The notes under the pieces are model-generated. The model saw nothing but the letters and a program-made list of their open reading frames with translations. It was not told the DNA's origin and searched no databases. A stretch of 64,000 bases of DNA, from assembly GCA_009787115.1 (NCBI GenBank), contig WRGQ01000170.1, forward strand, positions 21,640-85,639, written 5' to 3'. The stretch comes from Bacteroidota bacterium (GTDB lineage Bacteria; Bacteroidota; Bacteroidia; Bacteroidales; WCHB1-69). Each line of letters starts with the position of its first letter. The stretch's first letter is position 1. The position numbers and the translations under genes were made by a program. Shown here piece by piece: positions 16,426 through 47,097 of the stretch.

Positions 16426-17073
16426 TTAATACACCGGAAGTTTTGTTAAAAACTTGTTATTTACCATAGGATCAATGGGAAATCCTTTGTATCGTAATTC
16501 AAAATGTAAATGAGGTCCTGATGAAATACCGGTGTTCCCTCCCAGACCAATTATTTGTCCGGCTTTTACTTCCTGATCTGCAGCAACCAATATCTTTTCT
16601 AAATGGGCATACACCGTTTCACTCATATTGTAATGGCGTACCACAATCACATATCCGTAAGTTTTGTCCCATTTGGCAACACGCACTTTTCCACAAAAAA
16701 TACTGCAAACCGGATCGCCAACCGCCACGCGGAAATCTACACCGAAATGTTTTCTACCGTTTCTCATCCCATATTTGGAAGTTAATTCTAAATTTCGTTG
16801 CAACGGTGAACATAAACTGTCGTTAAATGAAAAAGTCTTCACATTTTCTCCTTCCCGAAGAGAGCGAAAATCAATAAAGGTGGTTTTGAAAAAATTATAA
16901 AAATTTTCAGGTTCGGGCGGACATATTAGGGTGGTGTGAGATACTGTTTTCTTATTTAGTTCATAATAATTTTCATAACATTCAATCAGTAAATCAACGA
17001 TATTTTTTTCTTTTTGAGCAAAAATACAATTGATTCCGGCAAGAAAAACGAATGCCAAAAAAATTTTTTTCAT
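16426..17073 (-). CDS. secreted M23 (LytM-type) peptidase, last gene of the T6SS block
   Basis: Signal peptide 'MKKIFLAFVFLAGINCIFAQ'. HxxxD 'HFGVDF'. HxH 'GPHLHFELRY'. It starts 9 nt after the tssF stop. Confidence 0.85.
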   Translation of the reverse strand: MKKIFLAFVFLAGINCIFAQKEKNIVDLLIECYENYYELNKKTVSHTTLICPPEPENFYNFFKTTFIDFRSLREGENVKTFSFNDSLCSPLQRNLELTSKYGMRNGRKHFGVDFRVAVGDPVCSIFCGKVRVAKWDKTYGYVIVVRHYNMSETVYAHLEKILVAADQEVKAGQIIGLGGNTGISSGPHLHFELRYKGFPIDPMVNNKFLTKLPVY

Positions 17074-17082
17074 AGAATAAGA

Positions 17083-18702
17083 TTAAGATACATATACCTT
17101 AAAGGGCAAAATACCGGAAGACCTTAGGGTTATCTTAGTTTGAAGTTCTTCAGCAACCAGATCCGTTTTTTCCATCTTTCTGATATAACTGTCATTCTTT
17201 AAGGATATAATGATGTTAATAATATCTTCCTTCGGCACGATTGAAAGATTCATAATTTCATCGCCCAATCTTTTCTCTCCATAATAATAAGTTTTGATAA
17301 AAGCAATAATATCTGCCTGAGTTACCAAACGATCTTTGGTTTGAAAATAATATTTAGCAATATCTTCCTTTTGTGCTTCATTTTGAATGGCATCTCTGCC
17401 TCCTTTGGTTTCCATAAGCAGAAAAGTTTTAGCCATATCTAAAGCAAGAGGTGTTTTAACCGCTTTCCCATCTCTAAACATTCCATTTACAGAAGTGCCC
17501 TGAGTAATTAAATAGTTCAGATCCACTTTTTTTACATCAATGTTTTCCTTCTTTAAAATAGCATAGTAATGGTCTTTTATCTTTTTATCATCTGATTTGC
17601 TGACAATGCTTCTGATTTCGTTCATCATATACTGCAAATTTTCCCACTTGTCGGTAGTGTTAAATTCTCTGATATTTTGGAAAGCAAAATAGTCGGAATA
17701 GTATTTATTCAACATCTCTTGAATCTGTTCAAAAAGTTTATTGGAATTAAATCTTTCAACGCCGTGTTGTCGGACAAGAATATTGTCAAAATCTTTCTCA
17801 TATCCTTCCATACACAAAAGGTTCAAAAACTCTCCGGAATCGGTTGAAAATTCCTTAATAGGATTTCTAATATCCAAAACAATCTCTTTCTTTTCCACAT
17901 TAACAATAGGGATACAGTTGATTTTCAATATATTATAAATATCAACAGCGCTATTAAAAGTAATTTCCAATTGGATGGTTCTTCCATCTAAATGGATAGC
18001 AGACGGGTCGTATTGGTCAATAATGTATAATTTATTTGAATGAGTTAAAAAAACCTCCCGCCAATAATCGTGAGTTCCAAACAGATAGTAGTTATGTTTC
18101 AGGAGCAGATGATTGTTGTTGAACCATTTTGTAAAGGGCAAATCATTGTATTGCGAAGGTTTGATTACAGGTAATTCATCGCCTCTGTACTTAATGCTCT
18201 CAATGGTTACAAAATCTGGTGTATCAATATAAAATGAGAGACCTGTAAGATTATCAAGCGGAGCAGTACATTCCAGCGCAATTGTCCAGACATTATTGTC
18301 AATTTTATTAACGACTTCCAATTCTGCATTGATTACTTTGGTATTCAGGAGTGGGGCGAAAGCGAATTTCTGTTTTTTGCTACTACTCATAAATTCAAAG
18401 GAGCAAGTTTCATCAATTATCTTTTCATCGGAACCATCTTTTAATTTGGTTTCAATAATAGTGAATGCCGGATATGGTTTCAATAAATGAAAAGGAACCG
18501 TCCTGTCCCGCAAATCCCGAAGCGTTCTCTCCTCATACTGATCAATATAATTGTAGATGTGGTAGGCTTGATACGACAAAGCCGTAATAAACAGATTCAC
18601 TACGGGGTCTGTTTCCACATTCTTAACCATATAGCCGTCTTTTGCCCACAGGTCAATAATATTTTTTCTTATTTCATTATTGTAGTCATCAAATCTTTTC
18701 AT
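17083..18702 (-). CDS. tssF: T6SS baseplate subunit TssF-like
   Basis: The N-terminus 'ETDPVVNLFITALSYQAYHIYNYIDQYEERTLRDLRDRTVPFHLLKPYPAFTI' parallels the TssF N-terminal consensus (DPhv..Lie..A.l....ld...P.....P.P). About 540 aa. The ATG at 18702 makes an ATGA overlap with the tssE stop (the track's TTG start is at 18714). Confidence 0.65.
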   Translation of the reverse strand: MKRFDDYNNEIRKNIIDLWAKDGYMVKNVETDPVVNLFITALSYQAYHIYNYIDQYEERTLRDLRDRTVPFHLLKPYPAFTIIETKLKDGSDEKIIDETCSFEFMSSSKKQKFAFAPLLNTKVINAELEVVNKIDNNVWTIALECTAPLDNLTGLSFYIDTPDFVTIESIKYRGDELPVIKPSQYNDLPFTKWFNNNHLLLKHNYYLFGTHDYWREVFLTHSNKLYIIDQYDPSAIHLDGRTIQLEITFNSAVDIYNILKINCIPIVNVEKKEIVLDIRNPIKEFSTDSGEFLNLLCMEGYEKDFDNILVRQHGVERFNSNKLFEQIQEMLNKYYSDYFAFQNIREFNTTDKWENLQYMMNEIRSIVSKSDDKKIKDHYYAILKKENIDVKKVDLNYLITQGTSVNGMFRDGKAVKTPLALDMAKTFLLMETKGGRDAIQNEAQKEDIAKYYFQTKDRLVTQADIIAFIKTYYYGEKRLGDEIMNLSIVPKEDIINIIISLKNDSYIRKMEKTDLVAEELQTKITLRSSGILPFKVYVS

Positions 18703-19151
18703 TGTTTTTTCCAAATATAAAATTCTATGTCTTGTTTATAGTCTCTAAATTCATCTTTTATCATTCCTCTTATAGAAATGGTAAGTTTTGATATTTTTTT
18801 GTCAAAGACTGTTTCGGTTTCCAGGTTTTGCAAACGTGTTTCAAACAGGGAGATCGCTTTTTCCAAATCTTTGGCATAATTGTTCAGATTGTCGCTTTTG
18901 CCCCCAATTTTCTTTCCTTTGAGTTCGTCTTTAGAATCTGCATTTTCAAATTCACAGTTTTTAAGCGAAAAACCGAAGCGGGGATCGGGTTTAAAACTGC
19001 CATTGGGAGAGTTAATCAGTAACTTAATAAAATCACTAATAGACTTTTGAATGCTTTTATCCAGATGTTCCTCGTTATGATCGGCATAACATTGGTTTTT
19101 GTCGTAAAAACTTCCGGGTGAAAAATCTAAAGGTATTTTAAGTCCGCTCAT
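18699..19151 (-). CDS. tssE: T6SS baseplate wedge TssE / gp25-like protein
   Basis: 150 aa. 'SIQKSISDFIKLLINSPNGSFKPDPRFGFSL' matches the gp25/GPW pattern (I...l.T..Ger...P.fG). It lies immediately upstream of tssF. Confidence 0.6.
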   Translation of the reverse strand: MSGLKIPLDFSPGSFYDKNQCYADHNEEHLDKSIQKSISDFIKLLINSPNGSFKPDPRFGFSLKNCEFENADSKDELKGKKIGGKSDNLNNYAKDLEKAISLFETRLQNLETETVFDKKISKLTISIRGMIKDEFRDYKQDIEFYIWKKQ

Positions 19152-19161
19152 AGTTCAGTGG

Positions 19162-20034
19162 TTAAATTTTAATTTCGTCCAATACCGGTTCAGGTTTTTC
19201 ATCAAAATTTTCATTAACAGTCATTATGCACTCGTAGCCTGATTTCATCAATTTGCCAATTTCAAGATGATTGTACCTTTCATCAATAAAACTTTTTATT
19301 TCAGGTATGTTATCTCTGTTTTTTTCACTTTTTAAGTACAACTGAAAGATGTGGCAGAATTTTTTCAACAACAGTATAAATTCTTTCGGAGATTCTTGCG
19401 AAGTATAATGTTGCAATTCCAATTGGAACATCGTAATATGAAAAAACAACGGATTATCTTCCGGTAATTTTCTGATAATTGTATTGATAACATAGTTAAT
19501 TTCGGCATACCTCCTCATAATATCATCTACAGAAGATAATGCAATAGAAGGCGGAATATAATCCTGATCAAATTCCCACTCGGAGTAATTTCTAATTAAT
19601 TTCAAAATCGGGATACCCTGTTTAACGGGGTTTGTTGTATTGTGTAAAACAAGGTTGTATGCAGGACAGACGTGCAGCCCCTTTTCATCTAATTGCGAAG
19701 TAGAATAAGGATCAACCGTTAAAACCACATAATATTCCGAGTTTGAACTATCCTGTAAATTCAATTCTTTTTGATAATGTGTATCTCGTTGTATGTTAAT
19801 GGGATATCCATCTACTGTCAAGGCTAAGCATTCCAAATGTTGAATACGGATTCTATCGTTGTCAATACTTTTTTCAATGTAAAAATTACTGTCGGGCAAA
19901 ATGCCGCAAGTACAGGAAGCAACGAAATAGCCTAAGAGATTTCGTTCGGAGATATGAAAATTGTCTAAATCAACAAATATTTCAGGAGTGATATCCAAGC
20001 CTTTTTTCCAGTGTATTTTATAATGTTTTTCCAT
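19162..20034 (-). CDS. tssK: TssK-like baseplate protein (short form, 290 aa)
   Basis: The N-terminus 'KIHWKKGLDITPEIFVDLDNF' parallels the TssK N-terminal signature (W..G..l.P..FQ). It sits among tssG, tssE and tssF. It is shorter than typical TssK proteins (about 440 aa). Confidence 0.5.
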   Translation of the reverse strand: MEKHYKIHWKKGLDITPEIFVDLDNFHISERNLLGYFVASCTCGILPDSNFYIEKSIDNDRIRIQHLECLALTVDGYPINIQRDTHYQKELNLQDSSNSEYYVVLTVDPYSTSQLDEKGLHVCPAYNLVLHNTTNPVKQGIPILKLIRNYSEWEFDQDYIPPSIALSSVDDIMRRYAEINYVINTIIRKLPEDNPLFFHITMFQLELQHYTSQESPKEFILLLKKFCHIFQLYLKSEKNRDNIPEIKSFIDERYNHLEIGKLMKSGYECIMTVNENFDEKPEPVLDEIKI

Positions 20035-20036
20035 AT

Positions 20037-20816
20037 TTATAAATGTGTATTATAATCAAGTATAAGTGAATCTTCTAATTTGAAAGGTTTTTTGTAATCT
20101 TTAATTCGATAGTCGTAGTGGTGTTCAACAGGGAGAAACCATTGACAGATAAAGTCGAAACACGGTTTCATCTCTTTATCCATATTCAGGTATTCCTCTT
20201 TCTTTAAGCCTTCAATATGAATTATAAACAGAGAAAAGAGCGGTTCTGTTTTTTTGACTTCAATTTTAGCAGCAGAAAATATATCTTTCAGTATATCAAT
20301 TAAAAGAGGAATATTTCCTCGCATTTGATTAGCGAAGGGGAGGAGTTCTATAATTTTAGCTAAGTATTTATTAGTGGTTTCTTTTTCAGGGATATCCAAA
20401 AAAGAGTCTATTAGCGGATTATTACCGGTTTTTGCAAAGTCATTAAGAAGATGTTCAAATTCAAGAGTCAGTTTAAAGAATGCGGTATCGAAAGGTTGGA
20501 AAAATGATAATGCTTCTTTTTGCTGTCTTTTTAGTTCTCGGAGTTCTTTATCGAACTCAAAATGAGATTTTTTATTACCGCTTAACAGGTTTTCCTTAAA
20601 AAAGAGCCCTTGGGGGAGAAGGTGAAAAATACCATCGCGGGCAAGCGCTATTGTTGTTCTATCTATTTCATTATCAACAGACAGTAAGTCTTCCGAATAA
20701 TTTCGGGAGAAAATACCTTTCATTTTAACGAAAAGATCTTCGTGAACGTTCAATAGCGAAACTAAAGTTTCCGCTTTGATACCTTTTATTTCCGATATTT
20801 CATTGATATTGTTCAC
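20037..20816 (-). CDS. tssG: TssG-like baseplate protein
   Basis: 259 aa. 'GIFHLLPQGLFF', 'ALSFFQPFDTAFFKL', 'LLPFANQMRGNIPLLIDILKDIFSAAKIEVKK' and the C-terminal 'LILDYNTHL' follow the order of TssG conserved blocks. Its GTG start overlaps the E1 stop (GTGA). Confidence 0.5.
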   Translation of the reverse strand: MNNINEISEIKGIKAETLVSLLNVHEDLFVKMKGIFSRNYSEDLLSVDNEIDRTTIALARDGIFHLLPQGLFFKENLLSGNKKSHFEFDKELRELKRQQKEALSFFQPFDTAFFKLTLEFEHLLNDFAKTGNNPLIDSFLDIPEKETTNKYLAKIIELLPFANQMRGNIPLLIDILKDIFSAAKIEVKKTEPLFSLFIIHIEGLKKEEYLNMDKEMKPCFDFICQWFLPVEHHYDYRIKDYKKPFKLEDSLILDYNTHL

Positions 20817-22045
20817 GCTTCAAACAGATTTTCAAAATGTTTAATATCGGCAGTTAATTCTACATAAGCATACCCGTTTTCAGTAGTAACCTGCAAAACA
20901 TCAAGATATGGGATTCCAATCTGCCGGAAGGTCATATCAAGGTATGGAAACTCTTCATCAATATTTTCATACGAGTGTTGGTAAAGTCCGCCGTCTGATA
21001 TAGAAAGATATACCATCTCCTGAGAAGCATCAATAAAGTTTGGAATTTTAGATTCGGGCATCATCGCTACAAACTTTTTATTGTCGGTACGTGAAGAGAG
21101 GAAATCCACAAATTTATCGTTTCGCAGGTTAATATCCACCTGTTCAACTTTTAACGTTTCCTTAATTATTTGTATTGCATCTCCAATTTTAGTATCTGCA
21201 CTTAGTGTTGGAATTTCAACGATGTTACCCCAAAATTCGTGCGAAATACAATCATTGTTATAATAACTGAATTCAAAAGTTCCGGCTTGGGAGTTTTTGC
21301 CTTGATAATTGAACATTATCCCGATGAGCGTATCAAAGATGCCTGCTTCTACTTCTTCCGAATGAATAATTTTCATCACTTCCTGTGCCTGTATGGCGCC
21401 AATAATAGAAGCGCTCACAGGGGTAGTGGCAACACGTCCGCGTTCGGCATTTCCCTGAGCAATTTGAGGACAGGAGGTTCTGTTTTCGTGACTGTTTCCG
21501 GTGTCGTCTGCAACCTCCTCTTCCGCAACACGGCATTCGTAACAGTTTTTACCCAATTGATAGGCGGTAACTTGTCCTTCCAAATCTCCGATTCCTCCTT
21601 CAATCCAGATTTTTCCGGCGCGAAAGCACATACGATTTAGCAATGTACGCGCTTTCAGACTGTCCAAACAGCCCACTACCACATCCATACGGCGATACAC
21701 GCCCAATCCGACGGCAGTAGAGAGGTCGCCGCAAATAGCCTTTACATTTATAGTTGGATTAATCTCTAACAGACGTTTGGCAGCAATTTCGGCTTTGTAG
21801 AATCCTTTATCCGCATCTTCCGGGCGGAACAGGATAGAACGTGTAAGGTTGCTAAATTCAATCTGGTCGAAGTCCACCACTACAATATTGCCTACTCCGA
21901 AGAGGGCTAAATTTTTCAATACTTCATTGCCCAAAGCGCCGGCGCCAACCACCAGCACTTTTGCATTTTTTACTTTGTCGATTTTAAACCACGAGAGCAA
22001 AGGAAAAACATCTTCACCCCATTTTTTATTCTTATTTGTTTGCAT
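20813..22045 (-). CDS. ubiquitin-activating-enzyme-like (E1, ThiF/MoeB superfamily) adenylating enzyme
   Basis: Rossmann Gly loop 'VLVVGAGALGNEVLKNLALFGVGNIVVVDFDQIEFSNLTRS'. 'CYEC' zinc dyad. A crossover-loop Cys ('RTSCPQIA') is followed by 'ATTPVSASIIGAIQAQEVMKII'. An extra C-terminal region of about 180 aa is a possible UFD-like domain. Confidence 0.85.
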   Translation of the reverse strand: MQTNKNKKWGEDVFPLLSWFKIDKVKNAKVLVVGAGALGNEVLKNLALFGVGNIVVVDFDQIEFSNLTRSILFRPEDADKGFYKAEIAAKRLLEINPTINVKAICGDLSTAVGLGVYRRMDVVVGCLDSLKARTLLNRMCFRAGKIWIEGGIGDLEGQVTAYQLGKNCYECRVAEEEVADDTGNSHENRTSCPQIAQGNAERGRVATTPVSASIIGAIQAQEVMKIIHSEEVEAGIFDTLIGIMFNYQGKNSQAGTFEFSYYNNDCISHEFWGNIVEIPTLSADTKIGDAIQIIKETLKVEQVDINLRNDKFVDFLSSRTDNKKFVAMMPESKIPNFIDASQEMVYLSISDGGLYQHSYENIDEEFPYLDMTFRQIGIPYLDVLQVTTENGYAYVELTADIKHFENLFEA

Positions 22046-22060: not shown

Positions 22061-24472
22061 TTACTTTTCAATATATTGGAATTTCGTATTACCGATAGTA
22101 AATTTCATACCGTGCTTCAAAGGAATGAGGTCGTCTTTATGGGCTTCTCTACCATCGCATACCACTCCGTTTTCAAGCGCTTTCATCATAGGCACTCTTC
22201 TTTTGGGGTCTATGTAGAGTTTTACTTGTTTGTCGTGAATATTTTCGTTGCTGTCCCAATTCATTTGAATAACACAGTGGTTGGATTTACCAATAGTTAC
22301 TTCGTTACTACCGCCCGAATCGTTCATCCATTTATGAATAGCAATTTCTCCATCTCTTTTTTCGCCTTTATATTTTAAGAAATATTTTTGAGCGAGGTGG
22401 TGTCGGGCGATAATAGAGATACCTAATCCGGCGCTGCATAGCATAAAACTGAACATCACGCCGAAATCAGAAAAATAAGAAGTAGTATAGAGAATAACAA
22501 AACTGATTACTCCTGAAATAAGCCCGCCTATTAAAGCATCCTGCCATTTGATAGTGCTTTTAAAGGCTAAACAAAGCGCCACACTACCTCCGAACAGGAT
22601 CCACGGAATGGCATCTAACCACCATACATTACCGGCTTTTCCCAACAAAATACAAATCATAGAACCCAATAAGAAAGTTGTAAATCCTACGAGAGCTCCA
22701 AACAAAGCACGACTGAAAAATGAAAAGAGCACTTTTCCTCTTTTTTGTCGGAAGTCGTTGATATAACTGAACAGAAAAGTTAAAACAAACCCCAGCAAAA
22801 TACCTGCAAATAAAAGTCCTGTTATTTTTACACGAAAAGTATCGTAAACATTGTGTGGAATTGCAGTAGCGCCTTCAATCACCTCTTTAAATTTTGCAGG
22901 ATAGAAGGCATTTACCAAAGTTTTGATGAACCCGGCGAATATTTCCCATTTAGAACTTATTTTGAAAATAATCCAAATAAAGAATCCGCTAATCATACCC
23001 GACATTGCCCATTTCAAGTAGTAAGGACTTTTTTTCAAATCAAACGGATGTCTTTTATCGAAATGATATTGAATCCCATCTTTACAATTTTGTCCATATT
23101 CCACGCATTTGTAACCGTTTTCTTTCCAGCAGTCCCAATGGATTTTATGGGGACATTTCACTACTATCAACTCTCCTCTTTCTAAAGGTTCTTGACAATA
23201 GGAACAGGTTTCATACACTTCCCCTTCGCTGGTATTAATAGGTTCATAAGGTTTAACATATTTCTTTTCAAAGTTATTGGTACGGGAAATAATGAAAGGA
23301 ATGATTACCTGCATTATAAAAAATGCAATAAAAAGAATGATAACTCCAAATATAACAGCTATGTAAGTACTCTCGGATGTTTTGCCGGGACCTTTGGGGT
23401 TTTCTTTACTGGCAATAGCATAATCAATTTTACCGACTGCCTTTCCATTTTCTTCGTCAATGCCTACTTGTAAGGTAAATGTTTTTCCATTATAGGTTCT
23501 GTTTTTGTTATGATTCACAAGTATCAATTCATAATCAGCGGAGAGATTATTTACAAAACCACGAAGAGAATCAACAATACCGTTTACATTAGTGGCAGGA
23601 TAGAAACCTCCTCTCAAGTCTGCATACTGACGTTGCAAACAGATATTGTCCAGCACTTTATCTACAAGACTGCTGCCGTTGCCATATCTGAAGGCATGGA
23701 TTTGTACCTGATTTTTAATGGTATTATCTATATTTTTAATATACTCATCCGATTTATCCAGATTATCAATTTCCGTAAACGAATTAAGGTTAATATTTCC
23801 ATCGGTAAAAACAAGTAAATACTTGGATATCGGCTCGGTACTTTTCTTTTGCATAGATGTATCTTTGGCAAATTTTTCAAAATTATCCATAATACTCTGA
23901 TACAAATCTCGCGGTTCCAGTTTTACTCTAAACTCTTTTTCAAATTCGTAGAAATTATATTTGGTAATCAGTTGTTTTTCGCCGGTTCGTCTGTCAAAGA
24001 AAGAGATGTAGGCGCAACTGTCCGGCAAATTTTCTACTGTTTTTTGTATGGCAGCCTTCATACTTTTCATATCTTCGTCGGAAATAGTTCTTCCTCTGTC
24101 CACCATAAACCAAAAAGCAACATTCTGAGAGATGAGTTCGGCTCCGGTGGCTCCCGATTTTTGGGAGATTCTTTCAACAATGATATCCTTTTTAGGCCAT
24201 GCGTAATCACCTTCAATAATGGTAAATTTGTTATTTTCCAGATTAGACCAGATTACTTTTTTGTTAGAATTATTATCGGTAATTCTAAAGCGCAGGAATA
24301 GGGTGTCTGCTTTTTCCGACCACGCACGTTTTGCAAAGTGCATATTAACAGTGTATTCTGCATCTTTCCATTTCTCCTGACGGATTAAATCATTTTTGGT
24401 GTCCACTTTTTGGTTTTGGCATGCCATAAGAAGGAACAACGGCATCAATAGGAACAGGTATCTTTTTTTCAT
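22061..24472 (-). CDS. polytopic membrane protein: lipoprotein signal + vWA-like domain + RING-H2-like zinc finger + 6 TM + C-terminal FHA domain (E3 candidate)
   Basis: Lipobox 'LLMAC'. vWA blocks 'FWFMVDRGRTISDEDMKSMKAAI', 'YLLVFTDGNIN', 'VQIHAFRYGNGS'. TM at aa 370-396. Finger 'CSYCQEPLERGELIVVKCPHKIHWDCWKENGYKCVEYGQNC' (nt 23084-23206). About six further TM helices. FHA 'VTIGKSNHCVIQMNWDSNENIHDKQVKLY...LKHGMKFTIGNTKFQY' (nt 22064-22360). Confidence 0.75.
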   Translation of the reverse strand: MKKRYLFLLMPLFLLMACQNQKVDTKNDLIRQEKWKDAEYTVNMHFAKRAWSEKADTLFLRFRITDNNSNKKVIWSNLENNKFTIIEGDYAWPKKDIIVERISQKSGATGAELISQNVAFWFMVDRGRTISDEDMKSMKAAIQKTVENLPDSCAYISFFDRRTGEKQLITKYNFYEFEKEFRVKLEPRDLYQSIMDNFEKFAKDTSMQKKSTEPISKYLLVFTDGNINLNSFTEIDNLDKSDEYIKNIDNTIKNQVQIHAFRYGNGSSLVDKVLDNICLQRQYADLRGGFYPATNVNGIVDSLRGFVNNLSADYELILVNHNKNRTYNGKTFTLQVGIDEENGKAVGKIDYAIASKENPKGPGKTSESTYIAVIFGVIILFIAFFIMQVIIPFIISRTNNFEKKYVKPYEPINTSEGEVYETCSYCQEPLERGELIVVKCPHKIHWDCWKENGYKCVEYGQNCKDGIQYHFDKRHPFDLKKSPYYLKWAMSGMISGFFIWIIFKISSKWEIFAGFIKTLVNAFYPAKFKEVIEGATAIPHNVYDTFRVKITGLLFAGILLGFVLTFLFSYINDFRQKRGKVLFSFFSRALFGALVGFTTFLLGSMICILLGKAGNVWWLDAIPWILFGGSVALCLAFKSTIKWQDALIGGLISGVISFVILYTTSYFSDFGVMFSFMLCSAGLGISIIARHHLAQKYFLKYKGEKRDGEIAIHKWMNDSGGSNEVTIGKSNHCVIQMNWDSNENIHDKQVKLYIDPKRRVPMMKALENGVVCDGREAHKDDLIPLKHGMKFTIGNTKFQYIEK

Positions 24473-24960: not shown

Positions 24961-25668
24961 TTAGTAGATATGTACATTTAAAGAAACAACAGCATTTGCA
25001 GGAAGTTTGGCTACCAATATTTTTCCAATCCATGGGGTTAATGCAGTTGTCCCCTTTCCTAATAATTCAACATCAAAATTATAAGTTTTTTCTCCTGTTT
25101 TTGTCAATTGTGTGTTAATATAATATACTCCGTAATCATTAACGCCCGTTGCCCACAGTAAAGTATATTTTGAAAAATCAACTTTTGGGTAAATGCCTTC
25201 CGCACATTTAATATTTTGTTCCAATTCTTCGCTGCTATTAATTAGAATTAGTCTTGGAAAATAATAACTTAAAGGCGCCCATTGGCATAGCGTATTAGAT
25301 AAAGTATATGTAAACCAACTATTTTTGGTTACTAATCTCCATTGCTGCAGGTCATTTGGTCCGCTATCATTCTTTACGTTTACCTCTAAAATGTTTCCAA
25401 TGCTTTCTTTTACAATTAAATATTTACTGTCCGTTTCATCAGTAATATTTACATAATATACCCGGCACGGGTAATCCAATTCTATTGTTTCGCCGGTAGC
25501 GGTGGTAATTTCAAAACCAGTTTGCACATCCGCTTTGGCATAAAGAGTAAAATTGCTTGTTTCATTGCTCATGCGTTCCATCACAATTTGGTTTGCCTAT
25601 TCTTGGGTAATTTGCGCGTGCAAAGAGGCAGTACAACAGAAAAAAATAAAAAGGGTAAATTTTTTCAT
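24961..25668 (-). pseudogene. secreted-protein paralogue of 46828-47097, interrupted by an in-frame TAG just after its signal peptide
   Basis: ATG at 25666-25668 encodes 'MKKFTLFIFFCCTASLHAQITQE', then TAG (25597-25599). The same frame then continues 'ANQIVMERMSNE...' to 24961. The paralogue reads 'ITKEQANAIV' at the equivalent position. Confidence 0.55.
25608..25654. repeat. 47-bp signal-peptide cassette, copy 1 (45/47 identical to 47031-47077)
   Basis: 'taatttgcgcgtgcaaagaggcagTacaacaGaaaaaaataaaaagg' versus 'taatttgcgcgtgcaaagaggcagCacaacaTaaaaaaataaaaagg'. Confidence 0.85.
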
Positions 25669-28918: not shown

Positions 28919-28924
28919 AAGCTA

Positions 28925-30052: not shown

Positions 30053-30057
30053 TATGA

Positions 30058-31182: not shown

Positions 31183-31511
31183 TATCCCGCAATTACTCTT
31201 TTAATAATAATTAATTTATCGCCTTCTTTAACGCCGTAGTCGAAGAGGCTTTGTTCTTCCCCGTTGTTTTTTTCTTTGAGGATTTCGCTTTTGCCGTCTT
31301 CCGACATACGTCCGAGGTAGTATTTAATGCGGTTTCCGCCGTTATCCATTTCCGGCAGCACCCATAGTTTATCGGGCATATTTCTTGCTTCCTCTCTCAC
31401 TTTTTCGAGGGTAAATTTAATGTTTTCTTTAGGATTGAGAATCCTGATGACGCAACTCTTATTTTCATAAGAGAAGATCACTTTCATACCTTGTTTTTCT
31501 TGATTTTCCAT
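31182..31511 (-). CDS. ubiquitin-like beta-grasp protein ending in a free C-terminal Gly
   Basis: The C-terminus 'SLFDYGVKEGDKLIIIKRVIAG*' aligns with ubiquitin '[22 protein letters not shown]'. 109 aa. Its TAA stop shares one nt with the E2 ATG (TAATG). Confidence 0.8.
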   Translation of the reverse strand: MENQEKQGMKVIFSYENKSCVIRILNPKENIKFTLEKVREEARNMPDKLWVLPEMDNGGNRIKYYLGRMSEDGKSEILKEKNNGEEQSLFDYGVKEGDKLIIIKRVIAG

Positions 31512-38796: not shown

Positions 38797-39183
38797 TTAT
38801 GTTTTTACCGTAACATTACCTGCAAATGTAACTTCAATCACACCGCCCCATATACACATACATTTACAGTTGTCAACCAAAGCGGGCATATTTTTCACCA
38901 ACACGGTAGGTTTTCCGGGTATCCAGGGTGCTACTGTATTGGGGATGCAGGGCATTGGGGTTAATACGCCGCTGGCAGAGGCGGTGGCTGAGGCTACTGT
39001 TGGATTTGCCAAAGACTGGCACATTCCGAAGGTAGCAATATTCACCATAGGTTTAAAATCCATAATATTTGCCATAGGTACCCCCGCGCAATTGATCATT
39101 TTATCGGGCAATACCGTGAAAGATCCGGGTGCTATCCCGAAAGTGCATTTCAATAAAGCGCCGTTAACTACAAAAAATCCCAT
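38797..39183 (-). CDS. DUF4280 / PAAR-like spike-tip protein
   Basis: 128 aa. 'VVNGALLKCTFGIAPGSFTVLP', 'NIATFGMCQSLANP', 'PCIPNTVAPWIPGKPTVLVKNMPALVDNCKCMCIWGGVIEV' follow the DUF4280 pattern. It lies directly downstream of vgrG. Confidence 0.7.
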   Translation of the reverse strand: MGFFVVNGALLKCTFGIAPGSFTVLPDKMINCAGVPMANIMDFKPMVNIATFGMCQSLANPTVASATASASGVLTPMPCIPNTVAPWIPGKPTVLVKNMPALVDNCKCMCIWGGVIEVTFAGNVTVKT

Positions 39184-41297: not shown

Positions 41298-41801
41298 CTA
41301 TTTTGTGTTTTCAGTGTTTGCTTTTTCCGGAATATCGGGTCTTTGTCCTGTTGATGGTTTTTCCCCCGAAGAATTATTAATTGTTTTTTCTTTGACGTCA
41401 AAGAGTACTGCATTTGCCTCTTCGCCGAAAATAATTCTGGCAGGGAATATGGATAATCGCGTGTACATCTGGTCGGAGGAGTGCATATTGAAGTACTCGT
41501 ATAAACTTACGCAAAAAGCGTCTTCAAATCTAATGTATCTATCTGAGGAACTTCCTTTGCTCACCACTTTCATATAAATCCAGCCACTCTTTTTTTCGTT
41601 GGGTTTTTGCATCCAGTCGTGAAAGAACATATCCGCGTCATCGGGAGCTACCACTGTAAATGTGATTACGCCGGGTTTGGGTTTTTCTGCCGGCTGTGCG
41701 GTATCCCGTTGCATCTCCTGCGTTAAAGTGTAACTACATTCCATAACAAGGTATGGGTCGTCGTTTTTGTTATCAATAAATAAATATGCTTCGTGTGCCA
41801 T
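41298..41801 (-). CDS. second Hcp/TssD-like protein with C-terminal extension
   Basis: 167 aa. The block order (…ECSYTLTQEM…GVITFTVVAP…FHDWM…GWIYMKV…IRFEDAFCV…LSIFPARII) parallels the adjacent Hcp (…SYSYSFNQSI…GLIKVTVKAQ…LLGWM…GAIIIMKA…ITFKKAYCV…IIISCQEIKI). It has an extra polar tail of about 30 aa. Confidence 0.5.
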   Translation of the reverse strand: MAHEAYLFIDNKNDDPYLVMECSYTLTQEMQRDTAQPAEKPKPGVITFTVVAPDDADMFFHDWMQKPNEKKSGWIYMKVVSKGSSSDRYIRFEDAFCVSLYEYFNMHSSDQMYTRLSIFPARIIFGEEANAVLFDVKEKTINNSSGEKPSTGQRPDIPEKANTENTK

Positions 41802-41921: not shown

Positions 41922-42332
41922 TTACTTCCAAGCATTTTTATAATCTACGTTTCCGATTTTGATTTCCTGACAGGAGATGATAATGGTTTCAGTGTGAGCA
42001 ATGTCCACATTTTTGCTTGCATCAGCCCAGTCTTCTTTGTAGTCCACGCAATAGGCTTTTTTAAACGTAATTTGTTTCATCTCATTCTTGATGTCATTCG
42101 CTTTCATAATAATGATAGCGCCGTCCTTTTTCATGTCAGGGTCTAACATCCAGCCCAGAAGTTCGATGTTGCCATCGTTTTGAGCTTTAACGGTTACTTT
42201 GATAAGTCCGCCTCTAGGAATTCCGGCGGGTTGATTCTCTTTATCAATAGATTGATTAAAAGAATAACTGTAGGATTGTACTTCACGTTTTGCGAAGCCA
42301 TCCACTGCTAATAGTACAGGTGTTTCTGCCAT
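41922..42332 (-). CDS. tssD: T6SS tube protein Hcp (TssD, Bacteroidota type)
   Basis: 136 aa. It sits directly after tssBC and before vgrG. Its size and pattern are as in subtype-iii TssD. Confidence 0.75.
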   Translation of the reverse strand: MAETPVLLAVDGFAKREVQSYSYSFNQSIDKENQPAGIPRGGLIKVTVKAQNDGNIELLGWMLDPDMKKDGAIIIMKANDIKNEMKQITFKKAYCVDYKEDWADASKNVDIAHTETIIISCQEIKIGNVDYKNAWK

Positions 42333-42382: not shown

Positions 42383-43759
42383 TTAATCAGTTGATTCACA
42401 TTTTTTGCTGTTTTTATCAGCGGATAATTTGATGGTAAAGTTCTTTGCTGCAAAGAACGGTACGATGTCAATATCAATTTTGATCTCTTTGGTTACCGGA
42501 TCCTGGAAAGGATTTTCAATGGTATAGTCTTTAAACAATTTGCCTGCTCCCTTGTATTGGTTGAGGAAAGCCTGAATGGTAGATCTTAATTGTTTAGGAG
42601 AGTTGAAGGGGTCCCAGTTTTCGAGGGCAACTTTGTGTACGTAGTGCATCAGGTTCTTTTTCACCCAGTCGAAAACGCGCACGATAGGATACTCTTGCAT
42701 AGCGGTATTGCTGCCGGTATAGAGGTTGGTATTGTTGTAAGCCATTACGCGACCTTCGGAGATTACCATAGGTATTACGTGATTGTCCCACAAGCCTGTA
42801 ATCTCTTCTTTCATCATATCTAAGTGAACGCCTTTAATTTCGCTCAGGGTACCATATTTTTCACCTGCGGTACCTTGTGCCATCGGGGTATTTCCATTTA
42901 ACAATTTTCCTGCCAGCGCTCCTGCGGGTGGAATATAGAGCGGGTTCATTTCGCCGGCAATAGATTCGGTGGGACGTCCTACTAACCAGTTAGCGGTAAC
43001 AATCACATTTTGCAACTCTTTATCTGCATCTTTGTATTCTTCGGTCTGTTCTTTCAGGATGTCATACTCTCTGCAATCTTCGGAGTCGGTAACCACCATA
43101 AATTTGTATTCGTAAGCCATTTTAGCCCACATATCACGCACTTGTTTATCTTTAAATACGTGTCCGGGTAATGCCAGCAAACTGTAGTTGTCTTTCAAAC
43201 TCAAACGTCCGAAAGCATTGTACAGCAAACTCTTTATTTCTTTGAAACTTTCGGAGTCGCTGTTTTGGAGTTCGTCGGTTTCGCCGCTACCGGAGTATTT
43301 TTCTACATTTATCAAACGGAGATTGGTAATTTTATCCATTCCGGAGTTTTTGAAGAAAGAGTCTAACGTACGGTACGAAGTTTCCAACTTTTTAATTTTA
43401 TAAGAAGCAATCTGGAGATTGTCTTTCAGGAGATTTTGATATTTCTCGCTTTTTTGGATGCAAAGGGCCACATATTCAGAAGCGGAGGTTTTGTCTTCGC
43501 TTAGAATTTCCAACCACGTAGTAATATCTTTTGCCAATCTTTCGCGTTTGCTTTTAAACTGGTTTTCGTTTAAGAACATCATTTTGGTAGCCTTGCTTGC
43601 CGGGTCGAGGTCGGCGGCGTCGGGCATAATAGAAGCAAATGTTCTGAATCCGCCAAATTTGGCTAATAGGTCAGCTACCGATTTACCGGGTTGCGCTTGC
43701 TGTTTAACCTCTTCCTGGGTTTGTACAGTTTCTTGTTGTTGTAATTTAGGTTCAGCCAT
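42383..43759 (-). CDS. tssC: T6SS contractile sheath large subunit TssC
   Basis: 458 aa. It follows tssB by 18 nt. The C-terminal region 'YPIVRVFDWVKKNLMHYVHKVALENWDPFNSPKQLRSTIQAFLNQYKG...IDIDIVPFFAAKNFTIKL' is sheath-like. Confidence 0.85.
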   Translation of the reverse strand: MAEPKLQQQETVQTQEEVKQQAQPGKSVADLLAKFGGFRTFASIMPDAADLDPASKATKMMFLNENQFKSKRERLAKDITTWLEILSEDKTSASEYVALCIQKSEKYQNLLKDNLQIASYKIKKLETSYRTLDSFFKNSGMDKITNLRLINVEKYSGSGETDELQNSDSESFKEIKSLLYNAFGRLSLKDNYSLLALPGHVFKDKQVRDMWAKMAYEYKFMVVTDSEDCREYDILKEQTEEYKDADKELQNVIVTANWLVGRPTESIAGEMNPLYIPPAGALAGKLLNGNTPMAQGTAGEKYGTLSEIKGVHLDMMKEEITGLWDNHVIPMVISEGRVMAYNNTNLYTGSNTAMQEYPIVRVFDWVKKNLMHYVHKVALENWDPFNSPKQLRSTIQAFLNQYKGAGKLFKDYTIENPFQDPVTKEIKIDIDIVPFFAAKNFTIKLSADKNSKKCESTD

Positions 43760-43777
43760 AACTATAAAATTTTAAAA

Positions 43778-44275
43778 TTATTTAACTTGATTTAATTCTT
43801 CGAGAAGAGATTCCAAAAGCGCTTTCAAATCGCTACGACCTTCGGGGTCTTTTAAGATGTCGCGTAAACGGGCGTTTTTCTCAATCGTTTTTTGCACATT
43901 TTCACAGTTTTCTTTTTTGGTGCGCAAATCACTTAAAAACGGGCTGTTGGTAACAAGATTACCTTTACCGTTGTTGATTTCAAAATCTTTCATTTCTTTA
44001 AAATTCAAGACCTCTTTTTTGGTCTCACCACCGTCGGCAGTAAAATCAATTTCAACTTTGGGTTTAAAGTAGTCGAAAGTGTCTTTGAGGTTTTTAGGAT
44101 ACACACCTCTTTTTTGTCCGTCTTCTTCTACTTCTTTCATTGCCAGTCCACGGTTGTCGAAAGTAACTTCCGACGTAAACTGGTCCACATACATAGTTTT
44201 GTTCTGAGATAATCCCTCAATACCTGCTGAGGAATCCTCATCTTCCAATCTGGATAGAAAATTTTCTTTACTCAT
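43778..44275 (-). CDS. tssB: T6SS contractile sheath small subunit TssB
   Basis: About 165 aa from 'MSKENFLSRLED'. 'LNFKEMKDFEINN...SPFLSDLRTKKE' resembles the VipA/TssB C-terminal pattern. The track's longer start (44332) would overlap clpV. Confidence 0.75.
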   Translation of the reverse strand: MSKENFLSRLEDEDSSAGIEGLSQNKTMYVDQFTSEVTFDNRGLAMKEVEEDGQKRGVYPKNLKDTFDYFKPKVEIDFTADGGETKKEVLNFKEMKDFEINNGKGNLVTNSPFLSDLRTKKENCENVQKTIEKNARLRDILKDPEGRSDLKALLESLLEELNQVK

Positions 44276-44319
44276 ATTATTTTGTTTTTTAAAAAGGTTA
44301 ATAATTTTTTTTATAATGT

Positions 44320-46797
44320 TTAATAAATCCATTCGAATTTGTCATTTTGGTATTTTAATTCTACTTTTCCACCGGCTTTCACATCGCCGGCAATAATCAT
44401 TTTAGAAAGCGGACGGCGGAGTTCGTTCCGGATAATACCTAAAATAGGACGTGCACCCAACTGCGGTGAAAATTCCGATAACGCTAACTTCTTCTTAGTC
44501 TCATCTGAGATAATCAGTTTAATATTCAATTCGTTTAACGTTTTCATAAGATTTTTCAGGTGAATGTTGAATATCATCAATACGATCTCTTCGGTAATTG
44601 GCGAGAAGGGAATGATTTCGGTAAGACGACCCAAAAATTCCGGCTTGAATTTTCGTTCTATCATAATCTGTTTTAAATCGTTGGAAGAAGGAATTATGCC
44701 TGCTTCAAACGACTTGAAGATATAGTCGCTCCCTACATTGGAAGTAAATACTACTAATGAATTGGAGAAATCGCCGGTACGGTTCAGTTTGTCGTGAATT
44801 CTACCTTCATCCATAATTTGGAGGAAGATGTTGAACACATCAGGGTGTGCTTTTTCAATTTCATCGAACAGGACGATAGAGTATGGTTTCTGACGGATTT
44901 TGTTTACTAACAAACCGCCTTCTTCGTAGCCTACGTAACCTGCGGGGGCGCCTGTCATCGTTGCCACCGAGTGAGATTCCATAAATTCGGACATATCGAA
45001 GCGAATAATAGCGGACTCATCCTGAAATAGAAACTCTGCCAATGCTTTTGTTAATTCTGTTTTCCCTGTACCGGTAGGACCGAGGAAGAATACGGAAGCG
45101 ATGGGTTGTCCTTTTTTGCTCAAGCCGGAACGCGATTCGTAAATAGCGTCCAACACGGTTTTAATGGCGTGGTCTTGTCCAACTACGCGCTCTTTGATAG
45201 TAGCCTCTGCGCTCACTAATTTATCGCGCTCTTTGCTCTGCACCTTCCCGATGGGAATACCGGTTTGTTGGGCTATTACCAACGAAAGGTCGGTGAGTTC
45301 AATGTGTGTGCGTTTGATTTGCACTAATTTGTGTAATTCTTTTAAGACTGCTTCAAGATGCTTGATTTTCTCGTCGTTGTTTTTCAACCCTGCAAAGTCC
45401 ACGCTGTCGTCTAATTGAGAAGTAAGCAGGAAACTCAGGCGGTTGAATATTTCGTGGTTGAGCCATTTCAAATCGAAGGCTGTTTTTTCAACTCCTTTTT
45501 CTTTGGCGGCATCTTTAATTTCCGTCAGTTTTTCTATCATCAAATCAATCTCTTTTTCGGAGATTTCATTGAGTGTATGAATATGCGACAAGGTTTTGTC
45601 AATCAGGTCGAAGGCAGAATCGGGGAGGCTGCGTTCGCCCATATATCTTTTGGAGAGACGAATTGCTTCTTCTACCACTTCGTCCGAAACCTGCAAGTCG
45701 TGGTGATCTTCGTAGCGTACCTTAGCGCCTTTGATAATACGGGAGGTCATTTCAAAACTTGGTTCTTCAATAGTAAGTTTTTCCAGTTTACGGGTAAACT
45801 CCTTATCGGTTTCAATGTTTTTGGTAAATCCTTCAACGGAAGTAGTGGCAACTAAGCGGATAGCGCTTTTGGTCAATTCTTTTTTCAACAGATTTGCGAT
45901 ACCGTACAGCATACTTTGTTTATCAAAAATCTTGTCAATACCTTCAATGAGCAGCACGGCGTTATCAATGTTGGCAATTTCAGTGAGCACTTTTTTCGCG
46001 CGGTCTTCAATTTCACCTTTGTAGTTGGCTTCGGAGGAGAGGGCAGACAGGTCTAACTCGTAAACAGAGCCATCTTTAAGAAAGTCGGGGACTTCACCTT
46101 TGATAATCCGTTGTGTAAGGGCGTCAATGAGGGCGGTTTTTCCAATTCCGGATTCCCCTACAATCAATACATTGGATTTATTTTTCTTGCCCAGAATTTC
46201 AAAAATGGCTTGCATCTCTTTTTCGAAGCCGATAATAATGGGCATATAGCCGTTTTTGGCTTCAATGGTTTTGTCTATAGTGTATTTTGCCAAACTGTTT
46301 CCGGTTCCGGTAGCAGATGTTGAGGAAGCCGCCGAAGATCTTTTATGGTCTTTGGCAGGCGCCGAACTTTCAAAATTTACCAACAATTCATCGGCAGTGA
46401 GCGGTAATGTTTTCAACTGGTCGAAAGGAAATCCCACGCCGGGGGTTATGGTAGCCGCCATCAATACCACGGGGGTAATGGTGTCTAATCCATATTTGCG
46501 TTGAAAACTTTCGGCTTCTTCAACCACAGCAACTAAAGCATTGGAAATAGGAAAATCGAATTTGGGAGAAGGCGACTTGGGCAGCATCTTCACCCGTGCA
46601 TTTGCCCAATCTACAAGATAGTAGTAGTCTTTATTGAGATCTTTCTCAATAAATTCAACCAACCCGATATCTTTATGCAGCAAAGCTTTTAAAAGATGGG
46701 CAGGTTCAATTTCTTCGTTCATAAATTCTTTTGAATACGACTCAGCGATCTTAAGCGCATTTCTTGATTCAACGGAAAATATACTGTTATCAATCAT
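44320..46797 (-). CDS. tssH: T6SS AAA+ ATPase ClpV (TssH)
   Basis: Clp_N-like N-terminus. Two AAA+ modules with Walker A 'GESGIGKTA' and 'GPTGTGKTE', and Walker B 'LLIEGID' / 'VLFDEIEKA'. 825 aa. Confidence 0.9.
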   Translation of the reverse strand: MIDNSIFSVESRNALKIAESYSKEFMNEEIEPAHLLKALLHKDIGLVEFIEKDLNKDYYYLVDWANARVKMLPKSPSPKFDFPISNALVAVVEEAESFQRKYGLDTITPVVLMAATITPGVGFPFDQLKTLPLTADELLVNFESSAPAKDHKRSSAASSTSATGTGNSLAKYTIDKTIEAKNGYMPIIIGFEKEMQAIFEILGKKNKSNVLIVGESGIGKTALIDALTQRIIKGEVPDFLKDGSVYELDLSALSSEANYKGEIEDRAKKVLTEIANIDNAVLLIEGIDKIFDKQSMLYGIANLLKKELTKSAIRLVATTSVEGFTKNIETDKEFTRKLEKLTIEEPSFEMTSRIIKGAKVRYEDHHDLQVSDEVVEEAIRLSKRYMGERSLPDSAFDLIDKTLSHIHTLNEISEKEIDLMIEKLTEIKDAAKEKGVEKTAFDLKWLNHEIFNRLSFLLTSQLDDSVDFAGLKNNDEKIKHLEAVLKELHKLVQIKRTHIELTDLSLVIAQQTGIPIGKVQSKERDKLVSAEATIKERVVGQDHAIKTVLDAIYESRSGLSKKGQPIASVFFLGPTGTGKTELTKALAEFLFQDESAIIRFDMSEFMESHSVATMTGAPAGYVGYEEGGLLVNKIRQKPYSIVLFDEIEKAHPDVFNIFLQIMDEGRIHDKLNRTGDFSNSLVVFTSNVGSDYIFKSFEAGIIPSSNDLKQIMIERKFKPEFLGRLTEIIPFSPITEEIVLMIFNIHLKNLMKTLNELNIKLIISDETKKKLALSEFSPQLGARPILGIIRNELRRPLSKMIIAGDVKAGGKVELKYQNDKFEWIY

Positions 46798-46827
46798 AAA
46801 TTTGTTATTTGGTTTATTATTATAATT

Positions 46828-47097
46828 TTATTGTTTAATTACTTTTATATCGGAGTGTTCGTTCAAATAATACGCCCAACAAGCATATTTTACCTTTATT
46901 GTTTCTTCATTATGCGTGGTTAAAACAAGATCTGCTTCACTTGGCACATGAGTAGAGACGTATAAAACGTAAGGCGGGGTTACTTCGTTTTGAAGATACT
47001 GAAGTACAATGGCATTTGCTTGTTCCTTCGTAATTTGCGCGTGCAAAGAGGCAGCACAACATAAAAAAATAAAAAGGAAAAAGCTAAATTGTTTCAT
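46828..47097 (-). CDS. small secreted protein, first gene of the block (paralogue of the 24961-25668 pseudogene)
   Basis: Signal 'MKQFSFFLFIFLCCAASLHAQ'. 89 aa. It shares the signal cassette and 'ETI.v.Y.C..YY.N' with the 25.6-kb copy. Confidence 0.55.
   Translation of the reverse strand: MKQFSFFLFIFLCCAASLHAQITKEQANAIVLQYLQNEVTPPYVLYVSTHVPSEADLVLTTHNEETIKVKYACWAYYLNEHSDIKVIKQ
47031..47077. repeat. 47-bp signal-peptide cassette, copy 2
   Basis: 45/47 identity with 25608-25654. Confidence 0.85.

Follow-up and report, generated by a model that had tools for sequence, protein, structure and literature searches.

A type VI secretion locus of a Bacteroidota bacterium without tssN, tssO, tssP, tssQ and tssR and with a ubiquitin-like conjugation cascade among its baseplate genes

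How a contractile secretion machine could cross the cell envelope when its locus lacks the genes known to build the passage is the question raised by a type VI secretion system (T6SS) at positions 16426-47097 of the stretch of DNA analyzed here, from a gut Bacteroidales bacterium (64,000 nucleotides of contig WRGQ01000170.1, hereafter the window). Envelope crossing by Bacteroidota T6SSs was solved only in 2024, with the TssNQOPR membrane complex of subtype iii (T6SS-iii), which is present whole or in some part in every T6SS-iii system (Bongiovanni et al. 2024, PMC10781749). In these systems tssN and tssP are nearly ubiquitous, tssN lies beside tssK and tssG, and TssK is the subunit that contacts TssN (PMC10781749); a survey of the same year lists GA1-3 as the only T6SS architectures of Bacteroidales (PMC10942478). 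In the window locus the canonical membrane-complex genes tssN, tssO, tssP, tssQ and tssR are missing, and genes of a ubiquitin-like protein (Ubl) conjugation cascade are tightly coupled to, and interspersed among, the T6SS structural genes. We hypothesize, with moderate confidence, that a set of membrane proteins encoded in the locus forms an envelope module not homologous to TssNQOPR, and that reversible Ubl conjugation gates the docking of the baseplate or firing.

The locus consists of 26 closely packed open reading frames (ORFs), all on the minus strand, and to judge from their sequences it is a complete T6SS in which tail, recycling ATPase and baseplate are conventional. A sequence-only reading of the same DNA had already recognized a tail and baseplate on one strand, and the families detected (PF17541 and PF17642, which are specific to Bacteroidota, ClpV and TssE/F/G/K) bear this out. 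The genes concerned are the following, with E-values in brackets:

44320..46797, minus strand: g2, ClpV/TssH-like double AAA+ ATPase for sheath recycling (AAA_2 6e-61; ClpB_D2-small)
43778..44332, minus strand: g3, TssB, small sheath subunit (1e-10 against canonical Bacteroides TssB)
42383..43759, minus strand: g4, TssC, large sheath subunit (PF17541 4.3e-99)
41922..42332, minus strand: g5, Hcp/TssD tube protein (PF17642 9.7e-32)
41298..41801, minus strand: g6, second, divergent Hcp with a C-terminal tail (PF17642 5e-21)
39245..41248, minus strand: g7, VgrG/TssI spike (Phage_base_V 1.4e-23; Phage_GPD 1.2e-15; TIGR01646)
38797..39183, minus strand: g8, DUF4280 PAAR-like spike tip, IglG-like (PF14107 5.5e-33; NF041248 IglG 2e-15)
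20037..20816, minus strand: g22, TssG baseplate subunit (1.4e-12 against canonical Bacteroides TssG)
19162..20034, minus strand: g23, short TssK of 290 aa, shoulder and neck only (TIGR03353 9e-13)
18699..19151, minus strand: g24, TssE, gp25-like, with weak matches (GPW_gp25 6.5e-6; TIGR03357 1.5e-4)
17083..18714, minus strand: g25, TssF (1.6e-6 against canonical TssF)

Because Pfam has no working model for TssB, TssG or TssF, failing even on the canonical Bacteroides proteins, the window was compared directly with a canonical control locus, the T6SS-iii of Bacteroides finegoldii (L090; other loci are likewise designated by L numbers). All nine core proteins matched in phmmer searches from this locus: ClpV (8e-175), TssC (3.5e-86), VgrG (4e-55), Hcp (2.7e-15), TssG, TssB and TssF at the values listed above and, most weakly, TssK (6e-4) and TssE (2e-3). 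In every related locus tssB lies directly upstream of tssC, and among orthologues of g25 the Pfam model T6SS_TssF gives a weak match in L009 and a faint one in L003. The ORF listed for TssB (184 aa) is about 30 aa longer at its N-terminus than its relatives (152-156 aa) and overlaps clpV by 13 nt; an internal methionine at codon 20 may be the true start.

The TssK of the window is unusual in length. At 290 aa it is indeed short, as the earlier reading had said, although the usual length of about 440 aa given there for comparison is the T6SS-i figure, canonical T6SS-iii proteins having 359-382 aa. Its match to TIGR03353 joins residues 6-190 to profile positions 2-206 of 429, that is, to the N-terminal part only, and the truncation was judged in an alignment with relatives of 298-383 aa. 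TssK measures 290-323 aa in loci of the window type and about 380 aa in a second group of related loci (type B, described below). The C-terminus carries a short conserved acidic and hydrophobic tail throughout the clade (..EEFxPLI, ..DEIKI), and type-B TssK bears a helical 'ELYxxLY' repeat extension of about 90 aa that window-type TssK lacks.

Turning to the membrane complex, the sequence-only reading had seen nothing resembling TssJ, TssL, TssM or TssA, and indeed no Pfam or NCBIfam match to any of the four was found among the window proteins, the T6SS-i TssC model TIGR03355 itself reaching only E 0.059. That reading took the absence to be as expected for a T6SS-iii, which would use TssN, TssO, TssP, TssQ and TssR instead. 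This was mistaken, because, by sequence and profile comparison, TssN-R are absent from these 64 kb as well, although Pfam detects them in the control locus. A search of the 26 products for these five proteins, which the same reading had envisaged, returned no match: in Pfam neither the TssN, TssO and TssR domains nor DUF5457 appeared at E<=0.01, phmmer with the canonical proteins yielded only noise, and tblastn with them found no match, whether in the full 64 kb of the window or in the 89 related loci searched. In L090 the Pfam models recovered TssN (3e-67), TssO (6.5e-27), the paralogue at the TssQ position (1.4e-6, by the TssO model), a PKD domain in TssP, four TssR domains (including TssR_VWA at 3.5e-42) and DUF5457; PGAP labels TssN, TssO and TssR in Capnocytophaga, TssN in Hymenobacter and TssO in Bernardetia. 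An NCBIfam scan for TssN-R also gave no match but is uninformative, the library holding no model for Bacteroidota TssC.

Within the same co-directional block lie the genes of a Ubl cascade, of which the carrier and the two enzymes that would charge it are:

31182..31511, minus strand: g12, ubiquitin-like protein of 109 aa ending at a C-terminal glycine (..VIAG-stop)
30628..31182, minus strand: g13, E2 ubiquitin-conjugating enzyme (UQ_con 1.7e-5; W-H-P-N ... Cys123)
20813..22045, minus strand: g21, E1, a ThiF-fold adenylating enzyme with a C-terminal extension (ThiF 1.3e-52)

The Ubl profile matches eukaryotic ubiquitin, and glycine is invariably the last residue (7/7 orthologues). The E2 motif W-H-P-N...Cys123 is likewise invariant in orthologues, and the E2 profile matches UBE2K/UBE2N at 6e-8. 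For the E1 the best PDB matches are eukaryotic Uba1/Uba7/SAE2 (6e-26), ranking before MoeB/ThiF. The E2 family is small: it counts 213 of 1.84 billion representatives at E<=1e-3, 122 at 1e-10 and 19 at 1e-30, and every one of the seven members whose surroundings were examined lies in a T6SS locus (window, L003, L004, L006, L010, L019 and L089). Two tandem E2 genes, not one, follow the Ubl gene in L003 (3687-4815), L023 and L031. That the free Ubl might be a TssN beta-grasp domain that had become detached is not supported at the sequence level, hhalign of the Ubl family against TssN having given noise.

The remaining two activities of the cascade reside in large membrane proteins:

22061..24472, minus strand: g20, polytopic E3-like RING protein (AlphaFold2 model, pLDDT 80)
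25716..28217, minus strand: g17, bitopic membrane JAB/JAMM deubiquitinase-like protein (AlphaFold2 model and motif)

From its N-terminus, g20 carries a lipoprotein signal peptide, a periplasmic beta-sandwich with a vWA domain and a transmembrane helix, followed by a cytoplasmic RING-H2 domain, six further transmembrane helices (seven in all) and a cytoplasmic FHA domain; Foldseek supports the vWA (TMt 0.65-0.68) and FHA (TMt 0.6-0.8) assignments. Eight zinc ligands of the RING are conserved (C423, C426, C440, H442, H445, C448, C456 and C463). The RING-protein family comprises 64 of 5.8 billion clusters; among 32 of its members zf-RING_2 was detected in 21/32, VWA in 14/32, FHA in 5/32 and Prok-RING_1 in 4/32. 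In g17 the periplasmic side is made up, in order, of a signal/anchor, a beta-sandwich, a disordered linker and a helical bundle; there follow a transmembrane helix (about 414-445), a cytoplasmic MPN/JAB domain and an extra alpha/beta domain. The HxHx7Sx2D motif is exact and its residues H604, H606, S614 and D617 are invariant, and Foldseek points to CSN5, Rpn11, BRCC36 and BilC (E 0.01-0.1) and to the Caldiarchaeum Rpn11 homologue; PADLOC gives a JAB match at 5e-5. The homologue search for g17 returned nine clusters, low-complexity words having saturated the candidates, and the alignment behind its AlphaFold2 model is shallow.

Taken together, the invariant Ubl glycine, the HPN...Cys of the E2, the RING ligands, the JAMM motif and the likeness of the E1 to eukaryotic enzymes make the enzymes look active; the cascade is complete and apparently catalytically competent. 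According to their structural models, the E3 and the deubiquitinase (DUB) are membrane proteins that combine large periplasmic domains with cytoplasmic catalytic domains; because the catalytic domains are cytoplasmic, Ubl chemistry would take place at the inner membrane face, which is where the baseplate docks. A protein of 300-333 aa with a weak match to an outer-membrane beta-barrel family (OMP_b-brl_2, E 0.0015) is encoded between the RING and E1 genes in L003 (12384-13286) and L009 (62-1063). In L004 a Ser/Thr protein kinase gene (15899-17422) lies three genes downstream of tssF, whereas the window locus has none; a kinase in a Ubl-linked T6SS locus fits the FHA domain on the RING protein.

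Three further exported proteins, all with cleavable signal peptides, are encoded between the E2 and JAB genes, and a cell-wall peptidase closes the locus:

30058..30624, minus strand: g14, exported 188-aa protein bearing a signal peptide (L003 and L010 encode orthologues)
28925..30052, minus strand: g15, exported protein of 375 aa with a signal peptide (orthologues aligned)
28214..28918, minus strand: g16, exported helical bitopic protein (signal peptide, transmembrane helix 170-188, short cytoplasmic tail)
16426..17073, minus strand: g26, exported M23 peptidoglycan endopeptidase (Peptidase_M23 4.9e-30, signal peptide)

We regard g14 and g15 as candidate periplasmic subunits of the envelope module. 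The latter has a beta-rich N-terminal part and a cysteine-containing, helical C-terminal part, and hhalign links it weakly (E 4e-4, probability 34%) to a 373-aa protein at the same position in L006. That locus also encodes, at the position of g16, a 285-aa protein of the same architecture, for which hhalign against g16 was negative, so that the likeness is one of architecture only. The peptidase g26 probably creates an opening in the cell wall for the apparatus; tssF is likewise followed by the gene of a peptidoglycan hydrolase, M23 or other, in L003, L004 and L009. As to the envelope proteins that the sequence-only reading had enumerated, the trio at 28214-30624, the JAB protein and the RING protein are real, but its list did not name the exported g1 and g19 and the M23 peptidase g26.

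The cascade is built into the T6SS locus in two blocks. The first (Ubl, E2, g14, g15, g16 and JAB) stands between the effector and the baseplate genes, and the second runs from the RING protein and E1 through tssG, tssK, tssE and tssF to the exported M23 peptidase. Within the first block the Ubl and E2 genes overlap by 1 nt, the gaps E2-g14, g14-g15 and g15-g16 measure 3, 5 and 6 nt, and g16 and the JAB gene overlap by 4 nt; in the second, 15 nt separate RING from E1, E1 and tssG share 4 nt at the stop codon of the former and the start of the latter, and tssG is followed by tssK after 2 nt. Base composition (G+C) is alike within the block and in the flanks, where the genes are of housekeeping kind: methionyl-tRNA synthetase, an S46 peptidase, a TonB-dependent receptor, an ABC ATPase, a sulfatase, an HhH-GPD glycosylase, a nucleotidyl transferase and a deoxynucleoside kinase. 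The same DNA also occurs in ENA as metagenome contig ERZ27257309 (98 kb), and g17 shares 100% identity with a protein of an NCBI MAG.

This arrangement recurs in related loci. The order Ubl-E2-[exported]-JAB-RING-E1-TssG-TssK-TssE-TssF-peptidoglycan hydrolase is conserved among them, JAB not throughout, and it holds where identity of the RING protein is 44%, 31% and 27%, within an overall range of 25-44%; on one contig of a termite-gut metagenome-assembled genome (MAG), carrying L003/L014, the whole window order is kept at 62% TssC identity. Among related loci with enough flanking sequence to show it, E1 is almost always immediately upstream of tssG. In type B, a group at 50-55% TssC identity, the first part of the locus usually reads ClpV-B-C-Hcp-Hcp-VgrG-PAAR-(PEGA protein, RRF-like protein)-E1-G-K-E-F, and where the region after tssF is visible (L006, L072, L089) it reads Ubl-E2-x-x-RING. 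The PEGA-domain protein (about 445 aa, with a signal peptide) is encoded between the PAAR and E1 genes in 37/89 loci, and the protein of about 240 aa in the same region, with a weak Pfam match to ribosome recycling factor (RRF), in 45/89; examples are L006 130-1458, L072 7104-9181, L022 19373-21233 and L089 18725-20810, and neither occurs in window-type loci. They may be the periplasmic and cytoplasmic accessory subunits of type B.

A scan of GTDB species genomes gave 211 relatives of the window TssC, the best 80 of the 211 being all 50-78% identical, and the lineage is seen in at least 80 GTDB species genomes. The closest (72-78% identical) are MAGs of termite-gut Bacteroidales, Lentimicrobiaceae and Dysgonomonadaceae, and the group includes cultured members: Parabacteroides distasonis An897 and An863, Mediterranea massiliensis, Caecibacteroides pullorum, Bacteroides mediterraneensis and Millionella massiliensis. 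Of these, P. distasonis An897 and M. massiliensis (Mediterranea) are examples that carry the type-B relative. Identity of the window TssC is 36% to the Bacteroides GA type, 34% to Capnocytophaga and 37% to Bernardetia and Hymenobacter (34-39% overall for canonical T6SS-iii of Bacteroidia, Flavobacteriia and Cytophagia), whereas the canonical proteins of these four are 54-64% identical to one another and those of the window clade 53-78%. A midpoint-rooted neighbor-joining distance tree of TssC placed the window clade and canonical T6SS-iii on opposite sides; because the tree has no outgroup, the lineage is described as a sister of T6SS-iii and not as nested in it. Given the gap between 34-39% and 54-64%, the sequences suggest a deep-branching Bacteroidales lineage that is sister to all the canonical T6SS-iii sampled. 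A TssC profile found no match among PDB sequences, and there is thus no sequence-level placement against the solved T6SS-i and T6SS-ii sheaths.

We propose the following working model for the system. The RING protein g20, the JAB protein g17 and the exported proteins g14-g16 would build an envelope-spanning anchor and conduit that replaces TssNQOPR, with the peptidoglycan opened by g26. At the cytoplasmic face E1 and E2 would charge the Ubl, which the membrane RING protein would ligate to a membrane-proximal target; this could be one of the two membrane enzymes (RING or JAB) or part of the baseplate, for example TssG or the truncated TssK. Ligation would create or stabilize the docking site of the baseplate and license sheath assembly; the membrane JAB peptidase would strip the tag and so reset the system; and the FHA domain would make the switch responsive to Ser/Thr phosphorylation, a role that Fha has in T6SS-i. 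The short TssK, which is restricted to this locus type, we count in favor of this model, and the arrangement as a whole suggests that tagging controls or builds the machine. In a more specific and rather tentative version, conjugation would itself be a structural or licensing step with TssK/TssG, the E3/DUB or, as with Atg8, a membrane lipid as acceptor: the conjugated Ubl would offer the docking site that the TssN beta-grasp domain offers in canonical T6SS-iii, and the JAMM enzyme would erase it after firing.

Several points weigh against the model. We infer the envelope role of g14-g17 and g20 from their topology, their position and the lack of alternatives, and we likewise infer the target of conjugation. 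The structural model of g17 is of moderate quality (pLDDT 68) and poor near the active site, and the E-values of its Foldseek matches are weak. The analysis covered 64 kb of one MAG contig, and TssN-R could lie in another part of the genome, T6SS-iii genes being at times distributed over several loci (PMC10781749). Two related loci (L046 and L060) have tssG-K-E with no adjacent E1. In type B the Ubl, E2, RING and E1 genes are retained, whereas no JAB is recognizable and the PEGA-domain and RRF-like proteins are added, so that the envelope proteins differ between the groups of loci.

Two genes between the spike and the cascade bear on one of the alternatives:

36078..38738, minus strand: g9, putative effector with a C-terminal M23 peptidoglycan peptidase (Peptidase_M23 5e-12)
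32719..35952, minus strand: g10, putative membrane-targeting effector, VasX_N/BTH_I2691-like (VasX_N 1.9e-13; NF041559 2.7e-13)

The second ends in two transmembrane helices and is pore-forming-like. Both begin with a Lys/Ser/Glu-rich disordered leader followed by a common N-terminal domain of about 140 aa (41% identical, E 1e-17), which may be a delivery or adaptor domain of this T6SS lineage, or a Ubl acceptor.

The alternative closest to our model is that the canonical complex is present beyond recognition, with g14-g16 as extremely diverged TssO/Q/P, g20 as a TssR-like lipoprotein-vWA fused with a TssN-like hub, and g17 containing TssO/P-like parts, the Ubl-enzyme domains having been grafted onto ancestral membrane-complex subunits. 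The architectures invite the comparison: TssR is a vWA-domain lipoprotein, TssN has several transmembrane helices and a cytoplasmic docking domain, and TssO/Q/P are single-transmembrane proteins with helical or beta-sandwich periplasmic parts (PMC10781749), while g20 has a lipobox, a vWA domain and seven transmembrane helices, g17 a periplasmic beta-sandwich and helical bundle, and g16 is helical with one transmembrane helix; moreover, TssO and TssQ are known to diverge past sequence recognition (PMC10781749). The details fit poorly, however. TssO/Q/P have an N-terminal transmembrane helix and are otherwise periplasmic, but g14-g16 have cleavable signal peptides; TssN has five transmembrane helices and a beta-grasp domain, against seven plus RING and FHA in g20; and the vWA domain is a common fold. 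Neither sequence nor profile comparison gives any signal (when the RING-protein family is aligned to TssR and TssN, hhalign reports a probability of 0.1-0.2%, which is noise), even though the same models find TssN, TssO and TssR in three Bacteroidota classes, and we think this origin unlikely. We are similarly doubtful that the cascade serves to tag cargo (effectors, Hcp, VgrG or immunity proteins), whether to load, activate or quality-check it or for self-protection, with the membrane location of the E3 and DUB serving only to bring these two enzymes to the firing site. The Ubl-E2 pair does come directly after the effector genes, whose products have the common Lys-rich leader and domain, and a precedent for tail-like targets exists, since Bil Ubl systems modify a phage-tail-related structural protein, as cited in PMC10557695. 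But whereas effectors differ from locus to locus, the Ubl module stays the same and remains linked to E1-tssG-K-E-F, and tagging of cargo would explain neither the absence of TssN-R nor why the E3 and DUB have large periplasmic domains.

Could the Ubl genes instead form a separate island, such as an anti-phage system of the Bil type, that happens to lie inside the T6SS locus, with the true membrane complex encoded elsewhere? Related bacterial Ubl/E1/E2/JAB operons are anti-phage systems (PMC10557695), the window covers part of the genome, and PADLOC gives generic matches for the E1 (CBASS E1-E2, 2e-15) and JAB (5e-5), though none for the Ubl, E2 or RING. The two blocks are, however, interleaved with baseplate genes and share overlapping stop and start codons with them; the arrangement persists in loci diverged as far as 25-30% identity and is seen across no fewer than 20 species genomes; the tiny E2 family lies in T6SS loci in 7/7 members examined; and the base composition matches the flanks. 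A defense island was rejected on synteny, the PADLOC matches being generic only and the context a T6SS operon between housekeeping genes, and an island of any kind seems improbable to us. Least credible of all is that the locus encodes not a T6SS but a particle like the extracellular contractile injection systems (eCIS/PVC) or T6SS-iv, as might be supposed from the missing membrane complex and the PAAR-like (DUF4280) spike tip. A split TssB/TssC sheath of the T6SS-iii family, ClpV, TssK and TssF/G exclude an eCIS, and in Pfam and NCBIfam scans of the 26 ORFs no tape measure, tail fiber, cap or single Afp-type sheath was found; the sequence-only reading, which had preferred a T6SS over an eCIS, was right on this point, TssE also being present.

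Compared with known systems, the locus resembles T6SS-iii (Bacteroides GA1-3 and Flavobacterium johnsoniae) in its TssB, PF17541, PF17642, VgrG, DUF4280/PAAR, ClpV and TssE/F/G/K proteins, in its Bacteroidota host and in having no TssJ/L/M/A (which sets it apart from T6SS-i). It differs in lacking TssN/O/P/Q/R and DUF5457, in that tssG abuts tssK and TssK is truncated, and in the Ubl/E1/E2/RING/JAB cascade and new exported proteins inside the operon. With prokaryotic RING-type Ubl systems, such as the Caldiarchaeum Ub/E1/E2/RING/Rpn11 operon, it shares the Ubl glycine, an HPN E2, JAB/JAMM, a eukaryote-like E1 and a RING-H2-like E3 with transmembrane helices; unlike theirs, its E3 adds a periplasmic vWA domain, six further transmembrane helices and FHA, its JAB is membrane-anchored, and the genes are coupled to those of a T6SS baseplate. 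Bil (BilABCD) and CBASS Cap2/Cap3 likewise combine E1, E2, JAB DUB and Ubl, and the Bil target is a phage-tail structural protein, but those systems are cytosolic, lack a RING E3 and form stand-alone defense operons, whereas this locus specifies a secretion apparatus. From T6SS-i regulation (Fha/TagH, PpkA/PppA; TagX/MltE) come to mind the FHA domain on the apparatus, the kinase in L004 and the terminal peptidoglycan hydrolase; here, however, the FHA domain is part of a membrane RING E3, the proteins share no homology with the threonine phosphorylation pathway, and the proposed switch is Ubl conjugation, instead of or besides phosphorylation.

Bacterial RING-containing Ubl operons were reportedly predicted in silico by Burroughs, Iyer and Aravind in 2011, from whose work the Pfam family Prok-RING_1 derives; the family description mentions transmembrane helices. 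In the full-text literature searched, no publication came up that connects a T6SS to a Ubl/E1/E2 cascade, although an earlier mention of T6SS by Burroughs et al. in 2011 or 2012 is possible. Complete bacterial E1-E2-RING-DUB cascades are rare and are not known to serve any physiological role outside phage defense. A lineage without TssNQOPR would represent a third, independent solution to envelope crossing; if our model is true, the locus defines a new T6SS subtype whose non-homologous membrane complex is operated by ubiquitination, and the first bacterial cascade of this kind with an endogenous role in cell biology and not in defense. Since the cascade would be hard-wired to a machine with easy read-outs (Hcp secretion and killing), a bacterial ubiquitin switch and its targets would become directly testable. 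The combination of an AAA+ unfoldase, a ubiquitin tag and the turnover of a large assembly also parallels eukaryotic Cdc48/ubiquitin.

Four smaller genes complete the locus:

46828..47097, minus strand: g1, small exported protein of 89 aa with a signal peptide, opening the co-directional block
31567..32604, minus strand: g11, protein of 345 aa that differs between loci; perhaps an immunity protein or adaptor
24961..25584, minus strand: g18, protein of 207 aa, variable and absent from L003
24503..25033, minus strand: g19, small exported protein, variable; read from what is probably its true start, it has 150 aa and a signal peptide

No family match was found for g1 in the Pfam and NCBIfam scans, or for g11 in those of Pfam, NCBIfam and PADLOC. 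Outside the locus, a protein with a Por_Secre_tail domain, the C-terminal sorting domain of the type IX secretion system, is encoded at 58253-60244 of the window on the plus strand, and in L003 (401-3190) another sits between the PAAR-like gene and the Ubl gene; the presence of such proteins nearby indicates that the host also has a type IX secretion system.

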